Sequence record: PZ445537.1
DNA: 45,054 nucleotides
From: a phage
Reading direction: 5' to 3' (one strand)
Each line of letters opens with the position of its first letter. Position 1 is the stretch's first letter. The position numbers and the translations under genes are program-made. Under the pieces are notes generated by a model. The model searched no databases. It worked only from the letters and a program-made list of their open reading frames with translations, and was not told the origin of the DNA. This document shows positions 20,132-42,353 of this stretch, in pieces.

Positions 20132-20781
20132 TTTCTTGTCTTATCTTCTAAAGCCCCGACGCGGATTGCCAGGGCTTTTATCGCGGCCAGCGCATCGAGC
20201 AACATGGGGGTCTGGTCGAGATGCAGCAGGCCGCCAATATCTTTGACGTATTCAGGGTCGATAGTTTCAATCTGCTGAGATATCACCCCGCGCCGTGGGG
20301 TCTGCGTTTCATCATCCTTAAAAGTGAAGTGTTTGAACTCCATCCGTGAAATGTTGCCCAGCGCCTCTTCTGGATCGAGGTCGTCACCAATATTTTTCAT
20401 AATTCTGTCTGAAACTGCAGACGTCATTATCTCCTTCCATGGGCTCCATGTATCAGTGTTGTAACCCCTGAAAAAAAACCTTCCCGCATCAGTTTTGTTG
20501 GCATACGGCAAGCAGAACTGCGTCAAGGCTACATCAGGAATACGAACATAATTTTGAACATACCCATACCAGCTGGTGATAGGTCCTGAAGTTGATTTCG
20601 CCATATCTAACAGCAAACGATATGTACCAGGTTCAGTCAGGGCATTGAAATTTGTCCCGTCAGGAGCAACTGCCATATCTGTTTTAAAGGCTCTGGCATC
20701 ACCAGTTGGCAACCCGAATGCCCCCACCTGCATGACGTTCCCGGCTGCGCCGCCTGCATCCAGCGTGGCGCTACTTCCCAA
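20128..20781 (-). CDS. silent tail fibre distal cassette C (inverted) with chaperone-like C-terminus
   Basis: 217 aa on the minus strand beginning inside site S2 (GLGSSATLDAGGAAGNVMQVGAFGL); C-terminus resembles an S74-type chaperone domain (SDRIMKNI...GVISQQIE); stop codon overlaps cassette B's stop tail to tail. Confidence 0.7.
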   Translation of the reverse strand: MGSSATLDAGGAAGNVMQVGAFGLPTGDARAFKTDMAVAPDGTNFNALTEPGTYRLLLDMAKSTSGPITSWYGYVQNYVRIPDVALTQFCLPYANKTDAGRFFFRGYNTDTWSPWKEIMTSAVSDRIMKNIGDDLDPEEALGNISRMEFKHFTFKDDETQTPRRGVISQQIETIDPEYVKDIGGLLHLDQTPMLLDALAAIKALAIRVGALEDKTRN

Positions 20782-25493: not shown

Positions 25494-26246
25494 TTATATT
25501 TCAAATGCCATTTGAGGCATGAAACGATCACGATCTGCGTCGTACTGCAATGAGCTGGCACTGTTGTATGCCTCTATGCGCTCAACCAGAACCGCTGCTC
25601 GTGTTTCTTTGCTTGCAGGCGCGTAGGCTGATTTATCCCATGCCTTGTCGATGCCAATATTGCGCGCCACGTTTGTACTGTCAGCTGACGACAGCGGGAT
25701 GTGACGGAATATATCGGCGTTAAGCATGCGCAGGCCATGAAGCTTTGTTATGGGGTAACCATTATTGTCGACAACATGCCGTATAAGATCTCGCAATTTT
25801 GCCCTGCATGAGCGTGGACGTTTCGCGTCGTATTCACCCATGCTACCGATGCATACCCTGGGGAATTCATGGCATAAGCGGATGAAACGCTCGTCAGGCT
25901 CGTTGAAGTGGTAAACTGGCGCGCCGACAACCTTACCGTGCGGCCATTCAGCTATTAACGCATCATTCTCTTCACTGGTCCCGCCGATCACGTCAGGGAT
26001 AACAGCAAAAGCAAAGCGCGGGTGATTCAACCAGCGGCCCACAAACTCGTAGTAATCATTCCAGTTAACAACGCGCTTTTTTGTCCAGAAGCTGAATGCG
26101 CCGTTATCCAGCGCAAAAGACTGGGTGACTTCGCTTGCAAGAGCTAATTGACCTGGATTAGCGAAGGAAATAAAAGCGTGCCTGCCTTTCCACGCCTTCA
26201 GTGCGCATGTATCAGGGGTTATTGGCCCGCCGTGAAAATGTATCAT
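25494..26246 (-). CDS. conserved hypothetical phage protein
   Basis: 250 aa from the ATG in ATGA overlap with the upstream TraR-like gene (track ORF extends to 26303); no motif recognised. Confidence 0.55.
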   Translation of the reverse strand: MIHFHGGPITPDTCALKAWKGRHAFISFANPGQLALASEVTQSFALDNGAFSFWTKKRVVNWNDYYEFVGRWLNHPRFAFAVIPDVIGGTSEENDALIAEWPHGKVVGAPVYHFNEPDERFIRLCHEFPRVCIGSMGEYDAKRPRSCRAKLRDLIRHVVDNNGYPITKLHGLRMLNADIFRHIPLSSADSTNVARNIGIDKAWDKSAYAPASKETRAAVLVERIEAYNSASSLQYDADRDRFMPQMAFEI

Positions 26247-31753: not shown

Positions 31754-32597
31754 ATTAACGGGTTACGTTTGGGACGCTTGTGCCGCTTCTGGCATGAAGC
31801 TGTCCAGCGTTGCCATCATGGCGCGTCTGGCTGACTTCAGCAGTGATGAAGGGGTTAGCTGGCCTTCCATTGCTACCATCGCGCGCCAGATTGGTGCTGG
31901 TGAGAGCACGGTTCGCACAGCCATATCACAGCTGGAAAAAGACGGTTGGTTAACCCGCCAGCAGCGCCGTAAAGGCAACCGAAATGCATCGAACGTTTAC
32001 CAGCTCAATGTTGCGAAATTGCAGGCTGCTGCCTTTTCTCACCTGTCAGATTCTGACGCATCAAAATCTGATGCCTCAAAAACCGACGCGTCAATATCTG
32101 AGGCATCAAAAAACGATGAGAAAGGCGGTTTTCACCCGTCAGAATCTGGGGGGGATCCGTCAGTAAATACAACTACTGATCCATCAGTTAAAAAACCTTC
32201 TTGTCCGGTTGCGCCGCAACCAGACCCTGAAGTGACGATCACCGATAACGCCATCCTGGTTCTGAATCATTTGAACCTGGTTAGCGGCTCACGATACCAA
32301 AAATCAAAAACTTCTCTGGAAAACATCCGTGCTCGTTTGCGTGAAGGTTACACCGTTGGCGACTTACAGCTGGTGATTGACCTTAAGCATGAGCACTGGA
32401 ATGGCAATGACGTGCAGTACCAGTACATGCGCCCTGAAACGCTATTTGGCCCGAAAAAGTTTGAGGGTTATCTGCAAAGCGGGATCCGTTGGGACAAGAA
32501 GGGGCGTCCACCGCGCGAAAGCTGGGGTGAAAAGAAACACGATCCGATGAAGTTCGGTCCGGTTGATACCAAGATTCCAGAGGGGTTCAGAGGATGA
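31743..32597 (+). CDS. replication initiation protein (O-like; N-terminal HTH, conserved phage C-terminal domain)
   Basis: 284 aa; N-terminal winged-HTH segment; serine/aspartate-rich linker encoded by tandem repeats; conserved C-terminal block (GYTVGDLQLVIDLKHEHWNGN). Confidence 0.7.
   Translation: MSTKLTGYVWDACAASGMKLSSVAIMARLADFSSDEGVSWPSIATIARQIGAGESTVRTAISQLEKDGWLTRQQRRKGNRNASNVYQLNVAKLQAAAFSHLSDSDASKSDASKTDASISEASKNDEKGGFHPSESGGDPSVNTTTDPSVKKPSCPVAPQPDPEVTITDNAILVLNHLNLVSGSRYQKSKTSLENIRARLREGYTVGDLQLVIDLKHEHWNGNDVQYQYMRPETLFGPKKFEGYLQSGIRWDKKGRPPRESWGEKKHDPMKFGPVDTKIPEGFRG
32052..32111 (+). repeat. four tandem 15-bp iteron-like repeats (putative origin) inside the initiator gene
   Basis: TCTGACGCATCAAAA / TCTGATGCCTCAAAA / CCGACGCGTCAATAT / TCTGAGGCATCAAAA, each with internal dyad TGA-GC-TCA; encode the SDASK-repeat linker, as lambda ori iterons do within O. 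Confidence 0.55.
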
Positions 32598-33928
32598 ATG
32601 AAAATAAATACTGCCGCGCGCTGGCTGAACTGCGTTCAAGACCAGCCCACGAGTTGAAAGAGGTCGGCGATCAATGGCGCACTCCGGATCTGTTGTTTTG
32701 GGGTATCAATGCGATGTTCGGCCCTCTGGTGTTGGACCTTTTTGCCGACGACAGCAACGCGAAGTGCCCAGCATGGTATACGGCTGAAGATAATGCCCTG
32801 ACGCAGGATTGGTCAGAGCGTCTGGCAGAACTCGGTGGTGCCGGGTTTGGCAACCCGCCTTACAGCCGCTCTCAGTACCACGACAAGCAGGCCGTCACCG
32901 GAATGACCCACATCATTAACCACGCTATGGCAATGCGAGAAAAGGGTGGTCGGTACGTTTTTCTCATTAAGTCTGCGACGAGTGAAACGTGGTGGCCGGA
33001 AGAGGCAGATCACGTCACATTCATCCGTGGCCGAATTGGTTTCGATCTTCCTACATGGTTCGTGCCGAAAGACGAAAAGCAGCAGCCCACCAGCGCATTT
33101 TTTGCTGGCGCTATCGTGGTCTTCGACAAAACATGGCGGGGTGAGCGTTTCAGTTACATCAACCGTACCGACCTGGAGGCCAAAGGCCGTGCTTCGATGT
33201 TGCTGGCCCAGTTTGCAGTGGGAAGAACGCAAACTGATGCGGCGCCGGAGCTTGATGCTGAGGTAGTGCCGGAGAAATTAGAGGCAGAACTGCCATTAAC
33301 CCAAAAAGCCATTCTGGAAACCAGTGGTGTTGAGGCTTGGGCCTGTGTTGTCGCGGCGTTCGGCGAGAAAGATGAGTACACCTTCAGCGAGTCAAAGTTT
33401 GGTCATACCTGGGCTGCCGACTCTTTGGAAGACCCTGAATTTACCAATGTTTCACCGCTGACGATCGACAGAGCGAAAAAGCTGATCAGCGAGAGCATCC
33501 TGGTGGGTGTTAATGCATGGCTGGAAACATTGCGCTTTGATAGCGATGACGTGAAACAAGACATATCAGAGCGGTTACGCACGGTTGCCGTTGAGTCTGC
33601 GAAAGAATACGGCATTAACCACAGTGAATTCATCGCGACCATGGAAAGCCTGGATAAAGCCAAATGGTCAAATATTCGGGGGATCCGCGCCCATGTCCGT
33701 GAGACGCAGGAATCAAAGGACAAGGCGTTAAACGAATCGCGCGTTTGGCCTCTTGAGGTTGGACTGGTGTTTAACCAGATTGAAGGGGCTGACGCTCTAC
33801 CTGTTTCACAGCAGAACAAGCTGAAAGCCAATATCAACCAGCTGTGGCTCGAACGTATGCCGACGAGTGAAATTATCACGACCGCTGGTGGTCTCTTCAA
33901 CAGCATGCAGGGGGCCGTCAATGCGTGA
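32594..33928 (+). CDS. DNA N6-adenine methyltransferase (phage Dam-type) with C-terminal extension
   Basis: 444 aa; catalytic motif GNPPYS (DPPY-type) in the N-terminal half; C-terminal ~230 aa of unknown function. Confidence 0.8.
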   Translation: MNENKYCRALAELRSRPAHELKEVGDQWRTPDLLFWGINAMFGPLVLDLFADDSNAKCPAWYTAEDNALTQDWSERLAELGGAGFGNPPYSRSQYHDKQAVTGMTHIINHAMAMREKGGRYVFLIKSATSETWWPEEADHVTFIRGRIGFDLPTWFVPKDEKQQPTSAFFAGAIVVFDKTWRGERFSYINRTDLEAKGRASMLLAQFAVGRTQTDAAPELDAEVVPEKLEAELPLTQKAILETSGVEAWACVVAAFGEKDEYTFSESKFGHTWAADSLEDPEFTNVSPLTIDRAKKLISESILVGVNAWLETLRFDSDDVKQDISERLRTVAVESAKEYGINHSEFIATMESLDKAKWSNIRGIRAHVRETQESKDKALNESRVWPLEVGLVFNQIEGADALPVSQQNKLKANINQLWLERMPTSEIITTAGGLFNSMQGAVNA

Positions 33929-35858
33929 AATTATCGTTGATAACTTTGCTGGTGGCGGCGGCGCGAGTACCGGCATTGAACTGGCGATCGGGCGTAGCGT
34001 GGATATCGCTATCAACCACGACGAAAACGCTATTGCTATGCATAAGACGAATCACCCTGACACGCTGCATTATTGCGAGTCGGTGTTTGACGTTGACCCA
34101 AGCGCAGCCACCAGCGGTAAACCTGTCGGCCTGGCCTGGTTTAGCCCTGACTGCCGCCACTTTTCCAAAGCGAAGGGCGCTAAGCCAGTTAAGAAAGAGA
34201 TCCGCGGGCTGGCGTGGATTGTCCTGCGCTGGGCGCTGGCAGTACGTCCCCGAGTCATGATGCTGGAGAACGTCGAAGAATTTAAGACATGGGGCCCGCT
34301 GCTCGATGAAGAATTACGCCCGGATCCTGAGCGTGCTGGTGAAACATTCGAGGCATTTGTCGGCATGCTGTCGACTGGTATCGCGGCGAATCACCCAGCA
34401 CTGGCTGAGGTTTGCGAATTTCTTGCCATTGAGCCGCACGGCCTGCAGGCGCAACAGCTGACCGCCGGGCTTGGCTATGAGGTCGATTATCGTGAGCTGC
34501 GCGCTTGTGACTACGGCGCGCCGACGATCAGAAAGCGTTTCTTCATGGTCATGCGCTGTGACGGCCGCAAGATTCATTGGCCTGAAGCGACTCATGGGGA
34601 TCCAAAATCACTGGAAGTACAAAGCGGCAAGCTGGCGCCATGGCGTACCGCGGCGGAGTGCATTGACTGGAATATCCCGGCCCGGTCCATCTTCGATCGC
34701 AAAAAGCCGCTGGCGGAAAATACGCTCAAACGTATCGCGCGCGGCATCCAGCGCTTTGTTATCGAAAGCGCATCACCTTTCATCGTGAAGTGTAACCACA
34801 CCACGACGAAAGGAGGTTATGACTGTTTCCGCGGGCAATCGTTGTTAGAGCCATTGCAGACCATCACTAAAAAGCATGGCTACGCGCTGGCGGTACCGCA
34901 TCTTACTAAATTCCGCACTGGGGCCACCGGGCAGCCAGTGACCGAGCCGGTTCCAACTGTCACCGCTGGTACGTCGGCGCGCCCTGGCGGGAATGGGCAT
35001 GCGCTTGGCGTAGTTGAGGCCGCCCTGACACCGTTCCTGGCTGGCAATGGCGGCAGTGAGTACCAGGCAAAGCCGCGCCCACTGGATAAACCCGCTCATA
35101 CAGTCCTCAAGCAGTCCCGCGCGTGCGTGGTTGCGCCGGTCATCGCCCGCCAGTTTGGTGCCAGTGTTGGGCACAGGGCTGACGAACCGAGCGCGACGAT
35201 TACTGCAGGTGGTGGCGGTAAGTCGCAGCTGGTAACTCCAACACTCATCCAGATGGGGTACGGCGAACGCCCAGGGCAAGAACCGCGTGTTCTTCAACTG
35301 AATAACCCGCTCGGCACGGTCACTGCTGGTGGTAATAAGTTTGCAACGGTGAGCGCGTTCCTGGCGAAGCACTATGGTGGGAATTACACGGGGCCGGGTG
35401 TTGGTATGGATGAGCCTGCCCACTCAGTCACTACTGTTGATCACCACGCGGTAGTTGCGTCGCACCTGGTGAAGCTGCGCGGAACCTGCCGCGACGGTCA
35501 GACCATGGACACACCTATGCCGACGATTACCGCTGGTGGCCAGCACGTTGGCGAGGTCCGGACATTCCTCGAAACCTACTGCGGTGATAGCGAGGATGAA
35601 TGGCTGGTGACGATCGAGGGGGTTAAGTACCAGATCGTCGATATCGGAATGCGCATGCTTCAACCGCATGAGCTTTATAAGGCGCAGGGCTTCCCTGACG
35701 GCTACGTTATCGATCAGGACTATCGCGGCAATCGTTACGCCAAAGACAAGCAGGTAGCGCGCTGCGGTAACGCAGTACCGCCGCCGTTCGCTCGTGCGCT
35801 GGTAGAAGCAAATCTTCCTGAATTATGTGTAAATCAAAAGGCGGGTGCAGCCGCCTGA
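33921..35858 (+). CDS. DNA cytosine-5 methyltransferase with long C-terminal domain
   Basis: 645 aa from ATG 33921 (overlaps the Dam stop); motif I FAGGGG, catalytic PC (SPDCRHFS), ENV (MLENVEEF); C-terminal half has repeated T(I/V)TAGG-like segments. Confidence 0.85.
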   Translation: MREIIVDNFAGGGGASTGIELAIGRSVDIAINHDENAIAMHKTNHPDTLHYCESVFDVDPSAATSGKPVGLAWFSPDCRHFSKAKGAKPVKKEIRGLAWIVLRWALAVRPRVMMLENVEEFKTWGPLLDEELRPDPERAGETFEAFVGMLSTGIAANHPALAEVCEFLAIEPHGLQAQQLTAGLGYEVDYRELRACDYGAPTIRKRFFMVMRCDGRKIHWPEATHGDPKSLEVQSGKLAPWRTAAECIDWNIPARSIFDRKKPLAENTLKRIARGIQRFVIESASPFIVKCNHTTTKGGYDCFRGQSLLEPLQTITKKHGYALAVPHLTKFRTGATGQPVTEPVPTVTAGTSARPGGNGHALGVVEAALTPFLAGNGGSEYQAKPRPLDKPAHTVLKQSRACVVAPVIARQFGASVGHRADEPSATITAGGGGKSQLVTPTLIQMGYGERPGQEPRVLQLNNPLGTVTAGGNKFATVSAFLAKHYGGNYTGPGVGMDEPAHSVTTVDHHAVVASHLVKLRGTCRDGQTMDTPMPTITAGGQHVGEVRTFLETYCGDSEDEWLVTIEGVKYQIVDIGMRMLQPHELYKAQGFPDGYVIDQDYRGNRYAKDKQVARCGNAVPPPFARALVEANLPELCVNQKAGAAA

Positions 35859-37644: not shown

Positions 37645-38337
37645 ATGAATTTACAAGAACTGGAATATACGCGGATTGAACTGCGCCGCGCGCTGGTGGA
37701 TTTATCAGGATCGACAAAAGGACAGCTGCAGGCGTTCAGTGAGCATCCACCAGCAGATAAGAATAAATACCCTCGGCACCATCCTGAAATCGTCATGGAG
37801 GGTGGGGAAGGTTGTGGATCAAAGGTGGTAAAAACTCTGGCCACTCCGCTTTATGTTCTTGAGACAAGGAGCCGTCGCCGACCTTTACCGCCTATTAAGG
37901 ATACGGAGTTCGCTTGTTCAGCATGGCGTCGATCGGTCAATGGTTTGGGGGAGCATTTGCAGGCATGGGTGCGGTACTGCTATGGGCATGACCTTGCTTT
38001 CCGGTACCAGAGGTTAATGTGCCAGCACGTATGGGAAGAGTTTCAGCGTCAGCATAGCGGCAAAAAAATCCAGGACCGTGTCACTAAAAAACTGGTAGGG
38101 CTTGTCTGGCTGGCGGCGCAAGAAGTTGCTGCCTCGCGTAATAACGATACCTATCAGGAGTATGCTGGTGCAGCTCTGGCGCGCATGGTCAGCGTTGAGC
38201 GTTCCACCTGGCTCAGAGTGTATTCAGGCCACTGGGCGGCTTTCAAAGCGTCGTTTGCTGAAATGGACAGCCAGGCACTAAGCGAAATTTTGTCACGGTA
38301 CGAAGAGTACCAAGAACTGAAAGTGGCGGAAATGTGA
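37645..38337 (+). CDS. putative late-gene antiterminator (Q-like)
   Basis: 230 aa from ATG 37645 (track start 37624 is TTG); called by position only: last early gene, followed by a short promoter-terminator unit and the late region. Confidence 0.4.
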   Translation: MNLQELEYTRIELRRALVDLSGSTKGQLQAFSEHPPADKNKYPRHHPEIVMEGGEGCGSKVVKTLATPLYVLETRSRRRPLPPIKDTEFACSAWRRSVNGLGEHLQAWVRYCYGHDLAFRYQRLMCQHVWEEFQRQHSGKKIQDRVTKKLVGLVWLAAQEVAASRNNDTYQEYAGAALARMVSVERSTWLRVYSGHWAAFKASFAEMDSQALSEILSRYEEYQELKVAEM

Positions 38338-38432
38338 GGTAACTTTCACTAACTCCCTCAAATGGGCTTGCAAAATGCAACAAAATGAGTCATATTTGAA
38401 CCTAATTTGATATGTTGCTAAAAGTATATCAG

Positions 38433-38455
38433 CCCGCCAGTGAGCGGGTTTTTTC
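38433..38455 (+). terminator. intrinsic terminator (tR'-like) ~100 nt after the Q-like gene
   Basis: Hairpin CCCGC-CAGTGA-GCGGG (38433-38448) followed by TTTTTTC. Confidence 0.6.
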
Positions 38456-38553
38456 TTGGGAGTAATCTGAAAAAACATCCCATCCTTCAGTGTTTTTAAC
38501 ATTTGTTAATGGTATTCTTTTTCAACCCTTAAACTCCTGTTTTGGCCTACATT

Positions 38554-39099
38554 ATGCTTTCTCTGGAAGAAGTAGCTCAACAAACCTATAACACCCTCCA
38601 GGCATACATGGATCATCGTGAGATAGATCTAGCAGTCGGTCCGCTTTCTTTTAATGATACTAGTTCCCTCATAAGAGCTTATGGTGAACTTAACTGGGAA
38701 TACTATGTAACCTCAGTAGGTAATGACCCGGATTGTTTCAGTTTATGTATTAAACTAATAACTTCTAAAGAGCATAAACTTGTTGATGATTACCCAGCGG
38801 GTGTGGCATTGTGCACCTACCATCACGGTAGCAGTAGGTTTGATATACATGCAGTTGAGAACTTCGTGAAGGATAGTGAAGATCATCCATTGCGTCGTAA
38901 GATGATTTTGTATACATTATACGCCGCCGTTATCTTCATGAAGCAAGTTGATGGTACTGAGGTTCGTATCATTGAACCAGTGGAAGAAAAGATTGATTAC
39001 TATCGGACCTTTGGGTTTGAAATGTCAGATAGTTGCTCTTATGTTATGACTTGTAGTCTTGATAGGCTGATGAGATACATGGCTGAAAGAGATGCTTAA
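38554..39099 (+). CDS. AT-rich cargo gene, hypothetical (possible GNAT-like fold)
   Basis: 181 aa from ATG 38554 (track start 38542 is TTG); the gene is visibly AT-rich compared with the rest of the genome; weak GNAT-like C-terminal pattern (HPLRRKMIL…IDYYRTFGFE); between Q-like gene and lysis cassette. Confidence 0.55.
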   Translation: MLSLEEVAQQTYNTLQAYMDHREIDLAVGPLSFNDTSSLIRAYGELNWEYYVTSVGNDPDCFSLCIKLITSKEHKLVDDYPAGVALCTYHHGSSRFDIHAVENFVKDSEDHPLRRKMILYTLYAAVIFMKQVDGTEVRIIEPVEEKIDYYRTFGFEMSDSCSYVMTCSLDRLMRYMAERDA

Positions 39100-39347
39100 T
39101 CATCATCCCATAAGTTAGCGGGTACATTGTAATTGTGTTATAGTGTACTCAAGTTTAAGCACTAGATACCGAAGAACTAGATGGCAGCTACCATCTATGT
39201 CAATCGCTCAAAGCTATGGCAATGAGTGGCTCAAGTATCGAGATGCTTCTTGCATGTAGTAGTAACATGAACATGTGAACTTCAGCACGCATGTTGTTAC
39301 ACGAAATGCATGTTCACTCTGGAACAATGCTTCCGAAGAGGTGATGT

Positions 39348-39509
39348 ATGGAAATGAAAAAAGAACGCTTGTTTGATACTATCCAAACTTACAGAAAAGC
39401 TGGCGAAGCTCTGGACTTTCTTATGAAGGTTGGTCCAGCTCTTGAAGAGAGTGCACAGGCACCTTCTCAAGAGCGTCAAGGTCGCCGTCGTGTTAGAGAA
39501 GCCGCATGA
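39348..39509 (+). CDS. small hypothetical protein (53 aa)
   Basis: ORF below the track cut-off; RBS GAGGTGA 5 nt upstream; charged C-terminus; followed within 30 nt by a strong terminator. Confidence 0.4.
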   Translation: MEMKKERLFDTIQTYRKAGEALDFLMKVGPALEESAQAPSQERQGRRRVREAA

Positions 39510-39537
39510 ATCTTGCCGCTTAAAAAATAGAAAAAAA

Positions 39538-39561
39538 CCCGCTTAATAGCGGGTTTTTTTT
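39538..39561. terminator. bidirectional intrinsic terminator
   Basis: AAAAAAA-CCCGC-TTAATA-GCGGG-TTTTTTTT. Confidence 0.7.
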
Positions 39562-39760
39562 CGTCGACAGAAAATTAAAGCCAGTTATCTAATCTACGCT
39601 CCTCCTATCTGGAGGAATTTTCGCTTGAGAAATGGGCGGCTGGAGGGTGTTGTAGCACCCGGCCAGCCATCAGCTCATGCTTTCAGGTCACAAGCTAACC
39701 AAGGCCCACTGCTTTAGCGCAAAAGCATAGTGAGCCTATCAGAGTTACGCTTACGGATCT

Positions 39761-40813
39761 ATGAAAAATACTGTAAATATAAACAGTGTTGAGCTTGTCA
39801 ACGCTGACTGCCTGCTATACCTCGCAACCCTCCCAGATAACACCATTGACCTTATTGTTACGGATCCGCCGTACTTCAAAGTGAAACCCAACGGCTGGGA
39901 CAATCAATGGAAAGGGGATGAGGATTATCTTCGCTGGCTTGATATGTGCCTCGCACAATTCTGGCGAGTGCTAAAACCTGCTGGCAGTCTTTATCTTTTC
40001 TCCGGTCACCGCCTGGCGGCAGACATTGAGATCATGATGCGTGAGCGGTTCAACGTCCTGAACCACATCATCTGGGCTAAACCGTCGGGCCGCTGGAATG
40101 GCTGTAATAAAGAGAGCCTGCGCTCTTACTTCCCTGCAACAGAGCGCATCCTCTTCGCTGAGCATTACCAGGGGCCGTATAAACCAAAGAGCGACGGTTA
40201 CGCGGAGAAGGGAAGCGAGCTGAAGCAGCATGTAATGACTCCCCTAATTTCTTATTTTCGGGATGCACGTGAAGCGCTTGGCATATCCTCAAAACAAATA
40301 GCCGATGCGACTGGAAAGAAGAACATGGTGTCTCACTGGTTCAGCGGTAGCCAGTGGCAATTACCGAATGAATCAGATTACCGGAAGCTTCAGTCCCTTT
40401 TCACGCAGGTAGCCATCGAAAAGCACCAGAACGGCGAACTGGCAACACCACACCACCAGCTGGTGGCTATGTGGCATTCGTTGAATCGCAAGTATTCAGA
40501 GCTGCTCGAAGAGTACAAATCACTTCGGCGGCATTTCTCTGTTTCCGTATCCGTTCCTTATACCGACGTCTGGACACATAAACCCGTTCAGTTTTATCCA
40601 GGTAAACACCCATGCGAAAAACCCGCTGACATGTTGCGGCAGATCATCAACGCCAGCAGTAAGCCTGGTGATGTGGTGGCTGATTTCTTTATGGGGTCCG
40701 GTTCGACCGTGAAAGTCGCGCTGGAACTTGGCCGCCAGGCTATTGGCGTTGAACTCGAAGAGGAAAGGTTTAATCAGACGATGGGGGAAATACGGGCGTT
40801 GGCAGGGGAATAA
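39761..40813 (+). CDS. DNA methyltransferase (N6-adenine/N4-cytosine, beta class)
   Basis: 350 aa; catalytic motif VTDPPYF near the N-terminus and AdoMet motif FFMGSGST near the C-terminus. Confidence 0.85.
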   Translation: MKNTVNINSVELVNADCLLYLATLPDNTIDLIVTDPPYFKVKPNGWDNQWKGDEDYLRWLDMCLAQFWRVLKPAGSLYLFSGHRLAADIEIMMRERFNVLNHIIWAKPSGRWNGCNKESLRSYFPATERILFAEHYQGPYKPKSDGYAEKGSELKQHVMTPLISYFRDAREALGISSKQIADATGKKNMVSHWFSGSQWQLPNESDYRKLQSLFTQVAIEKHQNGELATPHHQLVAMWHSLNRKYSELLEEYKSLRRHFSVSVSVPYTDVWTHKPVQFYPGKHPCEKPADMLRQIINASSKPGDVVADFFMGSGSTVKVALELGRQAIGVELEEERFNQTMGEIRALAGE

Positions 40814-40819
40814 ACGTGA

Positions 40820-40841
40820 GGTCGCGATAGCGGCCTTTTTT
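40820..40841 (+). terminator. intrinsic terminator after methyltransferase
   Basis: GGTCGC-GATA-GCGGCC hairpin (one G-U pair) followed by TTTTTT. Confidence 0.5.
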
Positions 40842-40881
40842 ATTACCTCAATAACACCCGCACAGAGCGAGGTGAGAGACC

Positions 40882-41184
40882 ATGAAAATGAATGATTCAG
40901 GGAACATCTTCACGCAGTTCTTTGCGTGGGTAGCAGCTCTGGCTTCTGCCATAGGATTTACCACTCAGGATCTGGTGTTCATGTTCTTTGGCGCTGCTGG
41001 TTTGCTTATCTCGCTTGCCTCCTACATCAACGGGCGTGTAGATGCACACCGCAGGCGTAAAGAGGATGAGAAGCGAACCAAAATGGTCAATGACTACCTG
41101 AAAGGCGTTGGTGACAAACCTCTTCACGAACGTCCCGCAGCTGCAAGCGTGGTCGTTGAGGCATTACAAAAGGAAAGTGACTGA
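40882..41184 (+). CDS. holin (two TMDs, dual-start MKM motif)
   Basis: 100 aa; RBS GAGGTGAGAG; starts Met-Lys-Met (ATG 40882 and 40888) as in lambda S; two hydrophobic segments and a charged C-terminus. Confidence 0.7.
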   Translation: MKMNDSGNIFTQFFAWVAALASAIGFTTQDLVFMFFGAAGLLISLASYINGRVDAHRRRKEDEKRTKMVNDYLKGVGDKPLHERPAAASVVVEALQKESD

Positions 41185-41720
41185 TGGGGACCAGAGCAAA
41201 ATTGAGTGCTGCTGTTCTGGGGCTAGTACTCGCTGGTGCGCCAGCATCCGTCATTCTCGATCAGTTTCTGAATGAGAAAGAGGGTAACAGCCTCACGGCG
41301 TACAAAGATGGCGGTGGTATCTGGACGATTTGCCGCGGCGCCACGATGGTTGATGGTAAACCGGTTGTGCAGGGCATGAAATTGACACAGGCCAAATGCA
41401 ATCAGGTGAACGCCATCGAACGAAATAAGGCTCTGGCGTGGGTAGACCGCAATATTACGGTACCGCTTACCGAACCGCAGAAAGCCGGGATCGCATCTTT
41501 CTGCCCGTACAACATTGGGCCGGGTAAATGCTTCCCGTCCACGTTCTATAAGCGCATCAATGCTGGTGACCGGAAAGGGGCCTGTGAAGCTATTCGCTGG
41601 TGGATTAAAGACGGTGGGCGTGACTGCCGTCTGACCAAAGGCCAGAAGAATGGCTGCTATGGGCAGGTCGAGCGACGGGACCAGGAAAGCGCGCTGGCGT
41701 GCTGGGGGTTAGACCAATGA
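41184..41720 (+). CDS. SAR endolysin (T4-lysozyme-type muramidase)
   Basis: 178 aa; N-terminal Gly/Ala-rich weakly hydrophobic SAR-like segment; catalytic E-x8-D-x5-T ([16 protein letters not shown]); start overlaps holin stop. Confidence 0.85.
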
Positions 41721-42337: not shown

Positions 42338-42353
42338 GGGGCGGCGCCGCGGG
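42338..42353. other. candidate cos (cohesive-end) site
   Basis: GGGGCGGCGCCGCGGG then AAACGGCTAGTTTTTCG, resembling the lambda left end as recalled; contains the 10-bp palindrome GCGGCGCCGC; ~110 bp upstream of the small terminase gene. Confidence 0.35.

Follow-up and report, generated by a model that had tools for sequence, protein, structure and literature searches.

Between a cargo segment and the holin gene, Escherichia phage Eeyore encodes a DNA methyltransferase, which raises the question of what kind of enzyme a temperate phage makes at this place, which DNA it modifies and how its production is controlled. We analysed the window, i.e., the whole stretch of 45,054 nucleotides, which is the Eeyore genome (PP925821.1; river water, USA) in rotated form: window positions equal record positions plus 19444, and the two sequences differ at 3 bases, the first of them at 42348. 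Our literature search found no paper on Eeyore or on the related phage Flotzy. The ORF of the methylase is present exactly as a preliminary description of this DNA had given it. That description had called it the third methyltransferase of the phage, and the genome indeed also contains a gene with a Dam domain (PF05869) and a C5-type gene (PF00145). RefSeq relatives of these two genes are named accordingly; the GenBank deposit applies a methyltransferase label to only two genes and names the Dam-domain ORF (32594–33925) PAPS reductase.

The location claimed for the gene, between a cargo island and the holin, holds as well, as the order is Q, AT-rich cargo segment, methylase, holin (Table 1). 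The GC content of the cargo segment is 0.39–0.40 against 0.50–0.55 in its flanks, and that of the methylase gene (0.50–0.51) equals the phage backbone. The cargo ORF had no match in Pfam or PADLOC, where no nuclease or defence family was recognised, and it is missing from Flotzy and from the CX21 prophage. No restriction gene adjoins the methylase, whose neighbours are the noncoding leader and terminators upstream and the holin gene downstream. As no cognate restriction endonuclease lies beside it, the methylase is an orphan rather than part of a Type II restriction-modification system.

Table 1. Features around the late-region methylase of phage Eeyore, with the two other methyltransferase genes (window positions).
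Feature	Position	Strand	Remarks
Dam-type methyltransferase	32594–33928	+	PF05869 Dam, E 1.9e-43; early-right region
C5-type methyltransferase	33921–35858	+	PF00145, E 3.6e-20; early-right region
Antiterminator Q gene	37645–38337	+	PF06323 Phage_antiter_Q, E 3.8e-40; Q-like in the deposit
Candidate late promoter, pR'-equivalent	38368–38396	+	TTGCAA-17 nt-CATATT; read from sequence
tR'-like intrinsic terminator	38431–38456	+	7-bp GC-rich stem and T-run; kept in relatives
Cargo ORF, 185 aa	38542–39099	+	PHROG 4350 (unknown function); AT-rich insert
Bidirectional intrinsic terminator	39531–39560	.	13-bp stem between A- and T-runs; closes cargo segment
Hairpin with U-rich tail	39600–39626	+	6-bp stem, ATTTTCGCTT tail; abuts leader
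Conserved structured leader RNA, 131 nt	39630–39760	+	Directly upstream of methylase ATG
Leader helices	P1 39632–39678; P3 39703–39736; P2 39692–39699 with 39744–39752	+	Manual structure
Leader alternative helix Px	39670–39678 with 39690–39698	+	Hypothesis
M.EcoGII-family methyltransferase, 350 aa	39761–40813	+	ATG start; PF01555
Intrinsic terminator, methylase-holin gap	40818–40846	+	8-bp stem and T-run; 5 nt past stop
Holin	40882–41184	+	PHROG 1350; next late-operon gene after methylase
Lysozyme	41184–41720	+	PF00959; late operon

The preliminary description had recognised a beta-class N6/N4 enzyme from the motifs VTDPPYF and FFMGSGST, and this assignment stands. The motifs occupy residues 33–39 (nt 39857–39877) and 309–316 (nt 40685–40708), with DPPY at residues 35–38 and FMGSG at residues 310–314. 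As motif IV lies N-terminal to motif I, the motif order is that of the beta class, and residues 29–340 match positions 1–219 of the 221 in the profile PF01555 (N6_N4_Mtase; E 5.9e-44). Measured against sequences that were machine-read from the PDF of Supplementary Table S1 of the SUPREM paper, in which small errors are possible, the Eeyore methylase is identical to M.EcoGII at 271 of 348 positions (78%; 88% similar, 2 gaps) over its full length and at 62 of 78 positions (79%) in the TRD (residues 160–237), where the other 16 differ, and it shares 86% identity with the resurrected ancestor Anc289, 85% with the resurrected ancestor Anc291 and 74% with SUPREM/Anc284. Over all 350 residues, the Eeyore protein shares 76.9% identity with the methylase of phage 1720a-02. 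By sequence comparison, membership of the Eeyore methylase in the M.EcoGII family is secure. M.EcoGII and M.EcoGI, from prophages of E. coli O104:H4 C227-11 (EGT69837.1), resemble it in beta motif order, in being phage- or prophage-borne and in being orphans, and M.EcoGII is of nearly the same length (349 vs 350 aa), with the identity running from end to end, TRD included. In Eeyore, a weak HTH signal, a sub-threshold Pfam HTH_3 match at residues 167–197 (E 0.001; 19.5 bits vs a cut-off of 23), falls within the region that the literature models as the TRD of M.EcoGII, where an AlphaFold model shows a four-helix, HTH-containing bundle at residues 160–237. The Eeyore methylase is a further member of a characterised family in an already known position, and not a new kind of enzyme.

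M.EcoGII is a prophage-borne beta-class enzyme that methylates adenines whatever their sequence context, be it in dsDNA, ssDNA or RNA, with up to 99% of dA modified (Murray et al. 2018, PMC5778455). Forde et al. likewise found the prophage enzymes M.EcoMV/M.EcoGI to be non-specific. For the Eeyore methylase, adenine methylation with little or no sequence specificity is most likely, judging from its similarity to M.EcoGII. The nearest solved structures by sequence are M.BceJIV (PDB 8URK; E 8.6e-24), which recognises GTWWAC, and M.RsrI (1EG2/1NW5; about 1e-21), which recognises GAATTC. These matches cover only the catalytic core (about residues 9–141 and 281–340), with the TRD outside; the beta-class core is shared, and the TRDs and motifs are unrelated. 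Scores against the NCBIfam YhdJ and CcrM equivalogs were far under their cut-offs. As the structure matches are limited to the core and the NCBIfam scores fall below cut-off, specificity is not transferable from either. A sequence search of solved structures and the literature yielded no structure of M.EcoGII itself.

The preliminary description had implied a motif-specific enzyme, whose motif could be assigned by heterologous expression and sequencing, and had taken the lack of a phage-specific methylated motif as a refutation. Given the 78% identity to an enzyme that methylates adenine in any context, the idea of an assignable motif is probably wrong. As the Eeyore protein resembles M.EcoGII, a missing specific motif would not refute its function; the expected signature is context-independent m6A. 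This corrects both the annotation and the proposed motif test, as the protein probably belongs to the M.EcoGII group and is unlikely to have a motif to assign. We note that specificity can shift through few substitutions and that the Eeyore protein is 22% divergent from M.EcoGII. Together with a DpdA-like gene, the Dam-type, C5-type and M.EcoGII-type enzymes depict a temperate phage that invests heavily in DNA modification.

The M.EcoGII family is also known for its silence and its toxicity. M.EcoGII is silent in its native lysogen and harmful when expressed constitutively, and its relatives form a very large family in enterobacterial phages, with phage 1720a-02 cited as very similar (PMC5778455). 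Lysogens carrying M.EcoMV/M.EcoGI had no transcript by RT-PCR (Forde et al.), and a 2025 review groups M.EcoGII with Mu Mom as silent and toxic (PMC12707154). Switch-on at induction to defeat restriction has been proposed in published work on the family. Our literature search turned up no case in which a native M.EcoGII homolog is reported to hyper-methylate virion DNA, and the papers on M.EcoGII do not describe the position of the gene relative to Q and holin or a leader RNA.

Next, we focused on how the Eeyore gene is transcribed. A candidate late promoter follows Q, and the block formed by this promoter and the tR'-like terminator about 30–50 nt downstream of it is conserved in four related phages and prophages. 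The promoter matches the consensus at 8 of 12 positions, which is why our promoter scan made no call there; its counterparts are the late promoters annotated in N15 and phiKO2. The preliminary description had the methylase bracketed by terminators, and this is what we found, with two hairpins, at 39531–39560 and 39600–39616, between the cargo segment and the leader and a third, at 40818–40837, in the gap before the holin gene; the hairpin of the tR'-like terminator spans 38431–38450. Relatives have a hairpin of other sequence with a T-rich tail at the place of the hairpin at 39600–39626, and equivalent terminators are annotated in SfV, N15 and phiKO2. In all, the region contains 10 terminator-like sites vs 4.3 ± 2.4 in shuffles. 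A scan of the plus strand for sigma-70-like promoters from 39100 to the ATG called no site. As the conserved RNA starts right behind the U-tract of the hairpin, there is no room for a promoter of the gene's own. The gene is phage-borne and lies behind three terminator-like hairpins without a called promoter; from this arrangement, it may be silent in the lysogen.

The same elements, i.e., Q, a promoter-like element, a terminator and late genes, make up the pR'-tR'-Q control of lambda and Stx phages, including the short terminated StxS RNA (PMC7547250); unlike in those phages, the Eeyore Q belongs to family PF06323 and the Eeyore promoter is only a weak match to the consensus. The placement of the methylase in a Q-dependent late transcription unit is supported: in relatives without the cargo, the gene comes right behind the conserved promoter-terminator element. 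The preliminary description had already put the gene in the late operon, and both the absence of a called promoter of its own and the synteny with lysis genes in N15, phiKO2, PY54, OS31, phiO18P and VHML argue for this. Its further proposal that progeny DNA is modified late in infection is likewise well supported, together with Q-dependent expression, by genomic context and by what the literature says on the silence and toxicity of family members; for Eeyore the timing is deduced from synteny and from relatives. Such tight, late-only wiring would be explained by the danger that the enzyme poses to the host. In Eeyore, the distance from promoter to gene is 1.3 kb and includes three hairpins, all of which a Q-modified polymerase must resist.

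The gene and its position are not peculiar to Eeyore; they are annotated across many lambdoid and Stx phages. The ECONIH5 and CX21 prophages and phage Flotzy have the order Q, variable segment, methylase, holin, lysozyme. In SfV, the methylase (orf48) lies between Q and holin with terminators annotated on both sides, and gp53 of mEp460 occupies the same slot after Q. In Stx phages, the inserted genes are tRNAs and stx, and they come behind the methylase rather than ahead of it as the Eeyore cargo does: in phiP27, the methylase (L24) is followed by ileZ, argO and stx2e, in 1720a-02 by stx2, and maps in publications on Stx phages show a 'DNA methylase' in the interval from Q to the tRNA/stx genes. 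In N15 and phiKO2, which are linear-plasmid prophages, the annotation runs from a late promoter through a terminator, the methylase (gp52 in both) and another terminator to the holin, and PY54 and Serratia OS31 are arranged like them. In the P2-like Aeromonas phage phiO18P, the methylase lies between holin and endolysin, and in Vibrio phage VHML just upstream of the lysis genes. The methylases of N15, phiKO2, SfV, phiP27, mEp460 and the Stx phages belong to the same family as the Eeyore protein (57–82% identity) and share its slot, after Q or a late promoter plus terminator and before holin or stx, as well as its flanking terminators and its leader RNA. Eeyore differs from them by an additional 1.1 kb of AT-rich cargo, inserted with its own terminator behind tR' and ahead of the leader. 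The leader of Flotzy and CX21 lies almost directly behind tR'. As the leader adjoins tR' in these cargo-less relatives, the Eeyore cargo is an insertion into an older layout in which the methylase was the first late gene.

The new part of this locus is the leader, a conserved structured RNA on which the preliminary description was silent. It is better conserved than its gene: among relatives, the leader hardly varies even where the coding DNA is only 85% identical, and across 130 loci from many Enterobacterales it is typically 85–97% identical vs 73–81% for the coding DNA. Its 5' edge is sharp and falls right behind the hairpin with the U-rich tail. The leader folds better than shuffled sequences (MFE z -5.4). 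A cmscan of positions 38300–41000 with Rfam 15 (E <= 10) gave zero matches within 39630–39760; its 29 weak matches fell on terminator hairpins or elsewhere outside the leader. ARAGORN found no tRNA or tmRNA in the leader.

The structure of the leader was worked out manually and with a covariance model, as RNAalifold alone under-called it because MAFFT had misaligned the hairpin tip. In an alignment of 74 distinct sequences, 94.7% of cells are paired in the manual structure vs 31–43% with the partners slid, and 9 pairs show two-sided changes vs 2.1 in shuffles (none of 500 shuffles reached 9). When divergent clades are included (43 distinct sequences, in an alignment that was itself fitted to the covariance model), compensatory changes occur in 27 of 36 pairs, with 250 double-change cells vs 77 in shuffles, a covariation score of 0.415 vs 0.159, and 84% of cells pairing vs 29–40% when slid. 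P1 and P3 are robust in the divergent sequences, and P2 holds in its outer four pairs; its inner half (58.7% paired) is without support there. Invariant nucleotides cluster at AAAUGGGC, AAGGCCCA and GAGCCUAUCA-A. Coding by the leader, as an ORF of 7 or 17 aa or as the 30-aa protein of the deposit, was considered and rejected on the grounds of loop indels and compensatory variation; the indels, of 1–2 nt, break every reading frame.

The covariance model finds the leader directly before the methylase in 1720a-02 (119 bits), phiKO2 (61 bits, E 1e-12), Serratia OS31 (57 bits), PY54 (56 bits), VHML (42 bits) and N15 (38 bits, E 2.7e-7). In the distant matches, the distal P1 stem is wholly rewritten in sequence and yet paired. 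The model found no leader at phiO18P, at one Erwinia locus and at many Vibrio-type loci; at some Vibrio-type loci, about 150 nt separate a match from the gene downstream of it. The association also holds when the search starts from the RNA: a pattern made from the leader alone had 79 matches in IMG/VR, of which 77 have an M.EcoGII-family ORF downstream and 2 are too short to judge, and the spacing between leader and ORF is identical in 76 of the 77. The leader is present in 2,635 of 5,426 complete E. coli genomes, with up to 8 copies, and in 57 records of phages, Stx2a and Stx2c phages among them. In E. coli, few non-coding elements of prophages are as widespread. That the leader is a real RNA element tied to M.EcoGII-family genes is well supported, and this support extends from Escherichia to Vibrio phages. 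Our literature search found no description of it. A 2023 bulk survey (PMC10690425) contains, without naming them, four candidate RNAs that precede adenine methyltransferases, so the leader may already be catalogued, though neither described nor curated.

As for its function, the leader has what is expected of a cis-regulatory leader, i.e., a structure kept by compensatory changes and a fixed position and orientation before one gene family. A Shine-Dalgarno sequence before the AUG (CUUACUGAUCUAUG) is lacking in most copies, and Eeyore has GGA only. The leader is probably a translational control element. In phage Mu, translation of mom is gated via a structured mRNA leader hairpin that is bound by Com; Mom is not a methyltransferase and makes N6-carbamoylmethyl-adenine. 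Mu mom resembles the M.EcoGII family in encoding a DNA modification enzyme that is toxic, is made late and stays silent in the lysogen (PMC12707154). Among modification genes under the control of a leader, mom/com may be regarded as the nearest functional precedent. It differs from Eeyore in that no com-like gene is evident upstream of the Eeyore methylase and the AUG is not sequestered in the predicted Eeyore fold.

Taken together, we consider it likely that the gene encodes an orphan, near non-specific N6-adenine methylase of the M.EcoGII family, which is made late under Q control and methylates phage DNA before packaging, with the leader gating its output. In the ancestral layout, the Q-dependent late operon would begin with the methylase. 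Transcripts from the late promoter would, in a lysogen, end at the terminator past Q, with two further hairpins behind it in Eeyore, so that the toxic enzyme would not be produced. Upon induction, Q-modified RNA polymerase would pass these terminators, the methylase gene and the next terminator, and then reach the lysis and virion genes. Translation would begin at an AUG that has no usable Shine-Dalgarno sequence and lies right behind the folded leader of 131 nt, which we infer to set or gate the amount of enzyme. The enzyme would hyper-methylate replicated phage DNA shortly before packaging, and this would blunt adenine-methylation-sensitive restriction in the next host. Blanket protection from such restriction is the probable benefit to the phage.

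Other explanations differ in what the enzyme recognises, in when it is made or in its main substrate. A Type II orphan methyltransferase of the ordinary, site-specific sort, which modifies adenine (or N4-cytosine) and guards one motif, would fit the beta-class fold, which is common to site-specific enzymes and is that of the best structure matches, M.BceJIV and M.RsrI; it would also fit the sub-threshold NCBIfam matches to YhdJ- and CcrM-type models, the database label 'site-specific DNA-methyltransferase' of its relatives and a TRD that is about 20% different from that of M.EcoGII. We think this unlikely, as the structure matches lie in the core (residues 9–113 and 281–340) and not in the TRD, as M.EcoGII and the active ancestors are far closer over the full length, and as the nearest site-specific relative, M.PflMI, is placed outside the M.EcoGII lineage in the SUPREM paper. 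For the resurrected ancestors, which are active, that paper demonstrates motif-free activity on RNA. M.EcoGII acts on ssDNA and RNA in vitro, and the main substrate late in infection could be one of these rather than progeny DNA, e.g., so that the expression of late or lysis genes is tuned; this would suit a linkage to holin and endolysin genes that extends across very different phage types, including phiO18P. The activity of M.EcoGII on RNA is about 100-fold lower than on DNA, however (V0 of 0.12 vs 11.1 in Table S3 of the SUPREM paper), and the need for late timing explains the linkage to lysis genes equally well, which makes this a very unlikely account.

The gene might instead be a moron, i.e., an independently transcribed prophage gene that methylates host DNA or RNA for the benefit of the lysogen, through epigenetic regulation or protection from resident restriction. 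Terminators on both sides are the classical moron layout, and the slot between Q and the lysis genes is where cargo such as stx accumulates. This is highly improbable in view of the lack of any promoter-like site between the upstream terminators and the ATG, the backbone-like GC content of the gene, which is unlike that of the adjoining true cargo segment, and the published findings that enzymes of the family are not transcribed or not active in lysogens and are toxic once expressed. For the leader, the alternatives to a structured RNA are a small coding gene, a DNA-level site (a promoter or a recombination boundary) or merely recent spread. The deposit has a 30-aa 'hypothetical protein' across the leader (record 20181–20273), lambdoid modules recombine at conserved boundaries, and many leader copies are near-identical. 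Such readings are quite unlikely all the same, as the variation falls mainly on paired positions, most of which change in a compensatory way (27/36 pairs), as phiKO2, PY54, Serratia, VHML and N15 still score 38–61 bits despite largely diverged sequence, and as no promoter was called.

Under the preferred reading of a structured RNA that gates a late methylase, the leader offers a testable handle on how phages control a toxic modification enzyme, and it is attached to an enzyme that is widely used in chromatin and RNA footprinting. More tentatively, it is possible that the leader represents an undescribed class of cis-acting RNA regulator, perhaps with two states (P1a and P2 vs Px), that gates translation of the toxic methylase in response to the enzyme itself, a late factor of the phage or a small molecule. 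If this were true, a riboregulator would have gone unrecognised in about half of E. coli genomes, and so would the circuit that naturally controls M.EcoGII, an enzyme in wide use. Px, the alternative helix, shares nucleotides with P1a and P2, and its formation would preclude P2 as well as the base of P1, leaving a choice between the topologies 1:2/3:4 and 2:3. Px beats slid and shuffled covariation controls; at pair 51–77, for instance, we found C-G in 33 sequences, A-U in 27, U-G in 9 and no pairing in 3. In a duplex-energy test that spanned the clades, Px performed weakly (mean z -0.9), and Px of Eeyore reaches only -4.0 kcal/mol. As the covariation of Px is good but its duplex energy weak, we regard the switch as a hypothesis.

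The RNA leader of the methylase (the M.EcoGII-family beta-class methyltransferase gene of phage Eeyore) is more conserved than the methylase gene itself, and its structure is backed by covariation. Copies were found in 2,635 of the 5,426 complete E. coli genomes searched; Rfam 15 has no entry for it. In the Vibrio-type loci L341-L357 from IMG/VR, a covariance model built from the leader gave matches of 23-37 bits at positions of about 300-450 within the loci, where they lie approximately 150 nt 5' of the methylase match and do not abut it. As the same search yielded no match in many other Vibrio-type loci, in phage phiO18P or in one Erwinia locus, the leader does not accompany every member of the methylase family. 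A GATC (Dam site) at 39754-39757, 4-7 nt 5' of the methylase ATG, is invariant among the enterobacterial copies and is missing in phages phiKO2 and PY54.

Features of the Eeyore genome, in window coordinates
Feature	Position	Strand	Evidence or remark
DpdA-like 'queuine tRNA-ribosyltransferase'	25494-26246	-	PHROG 887, E 3e-93
Dam-type N6-adenine methyltransferase, 444 aa	32594-33928	+	PF05869 at residues 19-199
C5-cytosine methyltransferase, 645 aa	33921-35858	+	PF00145; unusually long
Promoter-like element TTGCAA-17-CATATT, then terminator ~30 nt on	38368-38456	+	Conserved; just 3' of antiterminator gene Q
AT-rich cargo insert	38460-39560		GC 0.39-0.40; 3' end is a bidirectional terminator
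Structured RNA leader, 131 nt	39630-39760	+	Abuts methylase start codon

Upstream of the leader, the cargo insert encodes a 185-aa ORF (38542-39099, PHROG 4350) for which neither Pfam nor PADLOC gave a match; the close relatives Flotzy (a phage) and CX21 (an E. coli prophage) both lack the insert. The promoter-like element and terminator that follow Q would produce a short terminated transcript of ~50 nt, comparable to lambda 6S RNA or StxS.

Of the other two methyltransferases, the Dam-type protein was deposited as a 'phosphoadenosine phosphosulfate reductase', which looks like a mis-annotation inherited from PHROG 33262; its RefSeq relatives carry the name phage N-6-adenine-methyltransferase. 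The C5 methyltransferase gene shares its first 8 nt with the end of the Dam-type gene. Its Pfam match is broken into three stretches, and the enzyme may be multi-domain or multispecific. The DpdA-like gene, whose product has no match in Pfam, is located in the early-left region, where its neighbours encode a DksA-like zinc-finger protein and a dNMP phosphatase. Its presence is a hint that the phage may use 7-deazaguanine DNA modification on top of the three methyltransferases.

The window is 45,054 nt long, versus 45,057 nt for the GenBank record (PP925821.1), and the two first differ at 42348, by a 3-base length difference just 5' of the terminase small-subunit gene.
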